A stretch of DNA of 60,750 bases, filler included, from Sluysia triapertura (lineage: Eukaryota): assembly GCA_046118255.1 (NCBI GenBank). It is 4 parts of 4 records of this genome, joined end to end, with 100 filler letters (N's around TTAATTAATTAA, not from the genome) between each part and the next. Parts side by side here need not be neighbours in the genome. Positions count along the whole stretch, not along the records: positions 1 to 13,226 come from JBJNIA010051339.1; 3 more parts are not named here. One strand, 5' to 3'. Within the stretch, counting starts at the first letter, position 1, and every line of letters starts with the position of its first letter. Below are positions 112 to 1,089 of this stretch, in pieces. The position numbers and the translations under genes were made by a program. Below the pieces are notes generated by a model that was not told the DNA's origin, searched no databases, and saw only the letters and a program-made list of their open reading frames with translations.

Positions 112-1089
112 TGATTCCTGACAATCCTCTATATCGAGAAATGAAAATTTTCCACCTATGTGAGATCTACTACAATCAAATGCATTAATTCCATTTGTCT
201 TATTTATACCAAACATAGCAAGAAAAATAATTACAAATAACATATTATTGGTAGAATTACCTAGTCTAGGCAGTACATAAATTTGTGCTTATTAGAGTTT
301 AGTCTGTCTCTTTCTTTAATTATATTTTTCAAATCACCTTGGTTTTCAATCCATAACTTAAGTTTTGTGTCTGAAATTTATTATCTTATCTACCTTCCCT
401 TTATTAAGAAATTTCGCATTGGAACAATGTATAGGCAATAATGATTTTGAGATTTTTTCTATTTAATCCAGTATTAATTTGTTTATCTATTACTAACTTA
501 TATTGCCCTGCATCTGTATAATCACATATATCCTTATCTCTATATTTTTCCTCTAATTGTTGTGTTAATTGAGTAATTGCACTTCTACAATCTTTAATCT
601 TAGATAACAATATTTTATCCTGGCCAAAATTAACAAATTTATCCGACAATAGAGCATAAATTAAACTTGTTATATCTATTTCAATTTTATCGCCATTGTA
701 AATAATTTTCGTAAGTCTAAAGTATTCCTATTAACACTATTAGGAATTATTAATTGATCACTGCATCCTTATTTTCTGGGTCTGCCTGGTCTTCTCTGGA
801 GAGTATTTGTTTCCTTATTTAATGTCTCTACGTGTGGGCTGTCATTTATATATATTATGTAATCTAGTTGTTCATTATCTGAATCAATAATAACATTATT
901 CTTAACTTTATTATCTACATCAACTTTATTAGGAGTAGAGTAACTAAAGAGTGTTTCATAAACAATAGTAGCTTTTAATATATCATCATGAATTCCAAGA
1001 GGGTTACCATAATCGTTTAAAAAATAATCGGGCGCTAGATTTCTATCATAAAAATATAAATTGACAACCGTAGTATCAGAGTCATTCAT
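112..1089 (-). pseudogene. Degraded polyprotein relic, copy 1: AT-hook, Bcl-2-like domain, hydrophobic/signal segment and N-terminus of a chuvirus-like glycoprotein
   Basis: ORFs 769-1089, 404-649 and 61-243 plus frameshifted links give RRPGRPRK...DITSLIYALLSDKF...SAITQLTQQLEEKY...YKLVIDKQINTGLNRKNLKII...KLKLWIENQGDLKNII...MLFVIIFLAMFGINKTNG-INAFDCSRSHIGGKFSFLDIEDC. Collinear with the copy at 10279-11695. Confidence 0.75.

Follow-up and report, generated by a model that had tools for sequence, protein, structure and literature searches.

A decayed, probable Burro-type retroelement copy in Sluysia triapertura with a likely Bcl-2-fold domain ahead of a class III envelope glycoprotein

Positions 112-1089 of the Sluysia triapertura DNA analysed here (the window, 60,750 nucleotides in all) are quite probably a frameshifted, truncated piece of a Burro-type Ty3/gypsy retroelement, carrying a likely Bcl-2-fold domain directly before a signal segment and the start of a class III envelope glycoprotein. 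A second copy of the same arrangement (copy 2) is open over its central part, and the divergence of the two copies went on under past purifying selection. The window consists of four assembly pieces joined by linkers at 13227-13326, 25745-25844 and 41175-41274 (each with 44 N, a 12-base all-frame stop word and 44 N), has a G+C of about 24% and is eukaryotic in content. Both copies lie on the first assembly piece, while the MutL C-terminal, helicase, integrase and GPCR genes are on the other pieces.

All seven motifs quoted in the sequence-only reading of the interval were located on the minus strand within 112-1089, in the order in which they had been given (Table 1). That reading passed over the truncation of the interval and over its breaks, where the frame changes four times and one stop stands in frame. 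Results showed that 112-1089 is no single reading frame: the motifs are spread over three frames, and copy 1 is divided into six open pieces (772-1107, 679-768, 407-727, 361-462, 264-377 and 64-288). It is also cut off after about 45 codons of the glycoprotein region, with similarity to copy 2 stopping near base 110. Copy 1 is a pseudogene and makes no such protein today. Beyond its open part, copy 2 is interrupted by a stop and by frame changes, and about 240 positions of the glycoprotein profile (about 100-335) are missing from it. Both copies are decayed, and the in-frame fusion is directly proven by copy 2 only, copy 1 showing the order of its parts.

Table 1. Features of the two copies and of the adjoining repeat, in positions along the window
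Feature	Position	Strand	Remark
Copy 1, RRPGRPRK basic motif, AT-hook-like or nuclear-targeting	772-795	-	Copy 1 translation; in-frame stop next
Copy 1, DITSLIYALLSDKF	635-676	-	Copy 1 translation
Copy 1, LEEKY	542-556	-	Copy 1 translation
Copy 1, KQINTGLN	461-484	-	Copy 1 translation
Copy 1, LKLWIENQG	336-362	-	Copy 1 translation
Copy 1, hydrophobic 15-mer, likely envelope signal peptide	205-249	-	Mean hydropathy 2.13
Copy 1, AFDC	172-183	-	Copy 1 translation
Copy 1, KFSFLDIEDC	121-150	-	Copy 1 translation
Copy 1, upstream open piece	772-1107	-	112 aa; final 42 codons aligned with copy 2
Copy 1, linker piece after the stop	679-768	-	Homology to residues 54-72 of copy 2
Copy 1, Bcl-2-like domain, first part (BH4-, BH3- and BH1-like helices)	416-715	-	100 aa aligned with copy 2 at 50% identity
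Copy 1, Bcl-2-like domain, next helix	364-423	-	Other frame
Copy 1, BH2-like piece	300-371	-	Third frame
Copy 1, Monjiviricetes-type fusion glycoprotein start, truncated	112-246	-	PF24664 profile 3-48
Very high-copy repeat, unrelated, adjoining the copy 1 break-off	16-100		Second occurrence 18727-18811, 90.6% over 85 bases; depth about 2 million in bins 1-94
Copy 2, open frame: basic motif, Bcl-2-like domain, hydrophobic segment, glycoprotein start	10847-11695	-	283 open codons
Copy 2, basic motif	11552-11572	-	
Copy 2, Bcl-2-like domain	11072-11458	-	
Copy 2, hydrophobic segment	10919-10963	-	15-mer, mean hydropathy 2.34
Copy 2, glycoprotein piece	10659-10817	-	PF24664 profile 55-99, E 0.0027
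Copy 2, glycoprotein piece	10282-10671	-	PF24664 profile 336-458, E 7e-17

The two copies are clearly homologous and strongly diverged, as had been proposed: they share the same residue at 128 of 254 aligned codons (about 50% amino-acid identity), tblastn between them scored 97.4 bits where none of 200 shuffles exceeded 21.9, and blastn gave 67% over 571 bases. The complementary tryptophan pattern described earlier was found as well, the BH2-like stretch reading KLWIENQGDL in copy 1 and STLIEKQGGW in copy 2, so that of the two BH2 tryptophans a different one is retained in either copy.

We measured selection on a codon alignment of each natural copy 1 piece to copy 2, from which 17 doubly covered positions and one stop codon were removed. 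Over 254 codons pN/pS was 0.43 (bootstrap 0.35-0.53) and the corrected ratio 0.21, with near-saturated synonymous sites and a protein-guided alignment, conditions that favour low values. Differences by codon position were 87/63/126 (p 1.7e-5); the largest single piece by itself gave a weak signal (p 0.12). In the Bcl-2-like part (125 codons), where a ratio near 1 had been named in advance as evidence against the proposal, pN/pS was 0.44 (0.32-0.60; corrected 0.24, p 0.032). A position-blind null of 300 runs had means of 0.86 for the 254 codons and 0.79 for the Bcl-2-like part, with lowest runs of 0.59 and 0.4475, which leaves the Bcl-2-like value just barely outside. The upstream part had a pN/pS of 0.54, the signal segment and glycoprotein start 0.32. 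The sequence-only reading held that the fusion predates the divergence of two element lineages, was under protein-level selection and is no chance juxtaposition. Considering that two copies of about 50% identity have this order in common and that purifying selection is detected, a chance juxtaposition can indeed be set aside; the selection, for its part, belongs to active ancestors and not to copy 1, which is dead.

Abundance was looked at in a read-contig sample (run X1) covering 1-1400, in which summed depth is not equal to copy number. There were 5,024 contigs on this interval, with a summed depth of 185 to 15,400 per bin over 142-1222; eight single contigs listed had depths of 13-26, against hundreds to thousands summed over the copy 1 gene. 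The summed depth fits a multi-copy family. No RNA data set was listed as containing the region. At many sites nearly all of the related depth differs from copy 1, and two such sites fall in the BH2-like stretch, which suggests that the differences of copy 1 from its relatives are private decay.

The glycoprotein identity given in the earlier reading was confirmed by the profile of the Monjiviricetes fusion glycoprotein (PF24664), which matches three pieces in profile order. An open part of copy 2 at 10282-10602 reached 59.3 bits (profile 366-456, E 2.4e-16), above the curated cut-off of 27, and the start in copy 1 (E 0.00096, 17.7 bits) fell below it; a weak bornavirus G match was found besides. 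On these profile matches the envelope is firmly assigned to the class III (gB-type, Monjiviricetes-like) glycoproteins. In copy 1 the match sets in within the hydrophobic segment, from profile position 3 onward, which puts this segment at the signal-peptide end of the profile; it is likely the envelope signal peptide. The same hydrophobic 15-mer, which in copy 2 follows BH2 at a distance of about 45 residues, also has the place of a C-terminal membrane anchor of the Bcl-2 family.

The helical domain upstream likely has a Bcl-2 fold, as judged from profile searches and predicted models. Pfam and NCBIfam gave no Bcl-2 family match at E<=10 for either copy. A profile built from the natural pieces and searched against 177,635 PDB sequences returned three matches at E<=10. 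Two of the three were Bcl-2 proteins: at the top the Trichoplax protein trBcl-2L2 (6yld; E 0.041, or 0.03 when trimmed), spanning BH3-BH1-BH2 with the BH1- and BH2-like stretches in register, and in third place Hydra HyBcl-2-4 (6wgz). A single-sequence PDB search with copy 2 gave one match, which was unrelated. For structure comparison we used a trimmed model of 129 aa (pLDDT 65, three alignment rows, helices 2-3 run together). All 40 Foldseek matches shown for it were Bcl-2-family entries, with a best E of 0.25, TM of at most 0.44 and an rmsd of about 8. VIA, run over 48,161 chains, ranked BAK1 (2jcn), canarypox CNP058 and trBcl-2L2 first to third; the best, BAK1, had a Z of 6.3, within the range that the tool calls common, with an rmsd of 4.6 and 114 aligned residues. 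Bcl-2 family members made up 15 of the 50 VIA matches listed and 15 of the 17 among those aligning at least 99 residues, a few being counted as family by what we take their names to mean. The Foldseek and VIA matches are not independent, the PDB being crowded with Bcl-2 entries. A first, longer model (pLDDT 53) gave 31 Bcl-2 matches of 36 in Foldseek, all at E of at least 0.69, no Bcl-2 protein among the best 50 VIA matches, and nothing clear against BFVD. The sequence profile, Foldseek and VIA therefore concur on rank, and none of them on significance. The Bcl-2-like label given to this segment is the best reading on offer, ranked at the top by sequence-profile and fold searches; it passes no formal threshold and the BH1 signature is missing.

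Where 6yld has this signature, NWGR, copy 2 reads NKER and copy 1 NRKN. The domain is like trBcl-2L2, HyBcl-2-4 and BAK1 in helix order, in the spacing of the BH1- and BH2-like stretches and in the hydrophobic segment downstream; it is unlike them in its identity of about 15%, in lacking NWGR and a Gly-Asp in the BH3-like helix, and in being embedded in a polyprotein. The Gly and Arg of NWGR are important for BH3 binding, according to passages of PMC9027176; as NWGR is replaced in both copies, the predicted anti-death role is not assured, and function is less sure than fold.

A rival view is that the element is of the same type but its helical domain is no working Bcl-2: it would be a helical bundle without relation to this family, or else a Bcl-2 fold that has come to serve beneath the envelope as a matrix-like structural adaptor. 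The sub-threshold scores throughout, the missing NWGR in both copies and a selection on the domain no stronger than on its neighbours (pN/pS 0.44 against 0.54 and 0.32) would all agree with this. We consider it unlikely, given that the sequence profile, Foldseek and VIA each put Bcl-2 first for the trimmed domain, that the BH1- and BH2-like stretches are in register with trBcl-2L2, and that viral Bcl-2 proteins can bind BH3 partners in such a state: ORFV125 does so with SPGR in place of NWGR, as passages of PMC9027176 report, and DPV022 despite missing NWGR or clear BH motifs (PMC11209288). One specific form of this thought, which we hold to be decidedly unlikely, is that the Bcl-2 domain of this lineage lost its canonical BH3-groove signature and was kept by selection in a new job, as a matrix-like adaptor tethered by the cleaved signal segment and provided with a nucleic-acid-binding hook, coupling the envelope to capsid or genome. 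A Bcl-2 fold acting as such an envelope-tethered adaptor appeared in none of the literature searched.

Upstream of this domain, both copies carry a GRP core with basic flanks, RRPGRPRK in copy 1 and RKPGRPRK in copy 2. Passages of PMC11354804 define an AT-hook loosely as a GRP core with basic flanks and stress the importance of the RGR in the consensus PRGRP. In both copies a P precedes GRP, so that the central RGR is absent, and the two 26-aa pieces around the motif gave no match to Pfam AT_hook. The AT-hook proposed earlier thus satisfies the loose definition, the label being overstated for a single 8-residue basic motif with no central RGR; the motif could as well be a nuclear-targeting signal. 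None of the literature matches listed brought an AT-hook together with a planarian. Further upstream, the region 931-1170 (minus strand) seemed by eye to resemble a ubiquitin-like domain; this reading is unsupported, with no Pfam match and with unrelated PDB matches at E 0.4 and 1.3.

The arrangement found here brings to mind Burro, a group of giant Ty3/gypsy elements treated in a review that we take to be by Arkhipova and Yushenova. As described in passages of that review (PMC6431247), planarian Burro encodes a single polyprotein of about 4,900-5,100 aa, in which gag is followed by accessory domains including ubiquitin-like and BCL2-like ones, then by an in-frame env matching fusion glycoproteins of arthropod and fish mononegaviruses, and finally by protease and pol. 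A Bcl-2-like domain followed by an in-frame mononegavirus-like envelope is therefore a published layout, and the novelty implied by the sequence-only reading does not stand. Among the literature searched, only PMC6431247 combined these two parts, and either the basic motif or the anchor may have been described before, in the original Burro annotation (Grohme et al. 2018); the passages of the review on Burro do not mention a basic GRP motif. The copies resemble Burro1-4 and GYPSM1 of Schmidtea mediterranea and Dugesiidae in this order, in high copy number and in decay into fragments with stops and frameshifts, which for Burro is reported in a related planarian, Dugesia japonica (passages of PMC6431247). 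They differ in that only the middle of the layout is seen, with no gag, BIR, ankyrin, MATH, protease or RT found; Burro itself, in the accounts available, has long LTRs in a unit of more than 25 kb. By this analogy of published layout, the copies are probably a divergent member of the Burro group.

Other elements share parts of the arrangement. The Platyhelminthes errantiviruses (e.g. Smed_errantivirus_1 to 6) are described in passages of PMC13524379 as GAG-ENV-POL with an HSV/gB-type ENV; they are like the present copies in the gB-type envelope and the upstream signal or membrane segment, and unlike them in being intact. Six Schmidtea env sequences in its supplement resemble by eye the cysteine-bearing ectodomain start of the copy 2 glycoprotein, and the words Bcl, Burro and apoptosis have no occurrence in its main text. 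Anakin elements, of the mosquito BEL/Pao group, also bear a chuvirus-like glycoprotein of the same family in an LTR element (PMC7642597; passages of PMC10084718); superfamily and host are different, and the passages of PMC10084718 contain no occurrence of Bcl-2.

Pfam scans of the flanks and a repeat search found no gag, protease, RT, integrase or LTR pair beside either copy, and positions 1-13226 hold no near-identical long direct repeat. The pair 7205-7519 and 12942-13210 was considered as LTRs around copy 2 and rejected, its identity of 70-83% contrasting with the 283-codon open frame between; the pair contains short palindromic blocks. A gag reading of 8350-9700 gave no Pfam match in six frames, and this region, GC-richer at 0.33 where the window has 0.24, holds several open pieces, which occur on both strands. 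A MATH-like reading of 11769-12029 was unsupported. Between the copies lie decayed host-gene pieces on the plus strand, Ima1 N-terminal-like at about 3380-3545 (E 3.4e-6) and innexin-like at about 3905-4102 (E 0.00028). Searches for related proteins with copy 2 returned no relative among 7,527 candidates from longer proteins nor among 1.84 billion representative proteins, with the glycoprotein piece none among 74 candidates from longer proteins, and in Atlas no usable match, empty results of this kind proving neither absence nor novelty. At 59513-59947 (minus strand), the end of a rhodopsin-type GPCR had one match at E<=1e-10 among 135 candidates, GCR073 of Schmidtea mediterranea (55%, E 1.4e-33); it lies on another assembly piece, separated from both copies by three linkers.

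These surroundings bear on an independent capture, in which a host Bcl-2 gene and a gB-type envelope would have come together in this genome, either in another lineage of elements or as a non-autonomous chimera, converging on Burro. The empty protein searches, the lack of gag or pol found beside the copies and the decayed Ima1-like and innexin-like pieces between them speak for such an event. One origin is simpler in view of the exact published order, the likely flatworm host (GCR073 match) and the by-eye likeness to Schmidtea envelopes, and copies 50% diverged under selection indicate an old coding family, which makes independent capture very unlikely. Extremely improbable is an endogenous insertion of non-retroviral origin, derived from an RNA virus of chuvirus- or mononegavirus-like kind and with another viral protein upstream, suggested by the Monjiviricetes-type glycoprotein, the weak bornavirus G match and the frequency of such insertions in invertebrate genomes (passages of PMC10084718), and opposed by an upstream domain that is Bcl-2-like and in frame with the signal segment, by multi-copy depth and by the lack of any nucleoprotein or polymerase match in the 17 + 86 frames scanned.

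Under the preferred reading of a Burro-type retroelement, the fusion would have been, in active ancestors, the middle of one gag-accessory-env-pol polyprotein, judging from the Burro layout. The internal hydrophobic segment would thread the glycoprotein into the ER. With cleavage by signal peptidase just behind this segment, the Bcl-2-like domain would stay on the cytosolic side, anchored by the segment in the manner of a cellular Bcl-2 tail anchor. So placed, the domain would most likely damp host cell death during element expression, and the basic motif would be a patch of the linker that targets the nucleus or binds nucleic acid.

The copies would represent a deeply diverged lineage among the Burro-type elements, considering the lack of a relative among the representative proteins searched. 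They also put a figure on what was no more than a proposal in the review, purifying selection on the Bcl-2-like domain being about as strong as on the envelope start, and keep in view a testable question, that of a retroelement blocking cell death in a stem-cell-rich animal, whose experimental confirmation is called worthwhile in a passage of PMC6431247. With the layout already in print and copy 1 dead, the intact, expressed Burro elements of Schmidtea reported in passages of PMC8532177 are the better material.

Other features were seen in the rest of the window. An inverted repeat pair of 900 bases, 75% identical, lies at 4845-5741 and 15522-16423. An open frame at 13494-14090 (plus strand) carries a MutL C-terminal domain (E 8e-11), which we take to be MLH3-like. 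At 46551-48000 (minus strand), DEAD-box helicase pieces (E 2e-8 and 7e-10) are followed by a CCCH zinc finger (E 4.5e-5) in what looks like a decayed gene. An integrase core at 49445-50008 (E 2e-10) is found between 111-base direct repeats, 89% alike, within 49031-50319, possibly a short, internally deleted LTR-element remnant.
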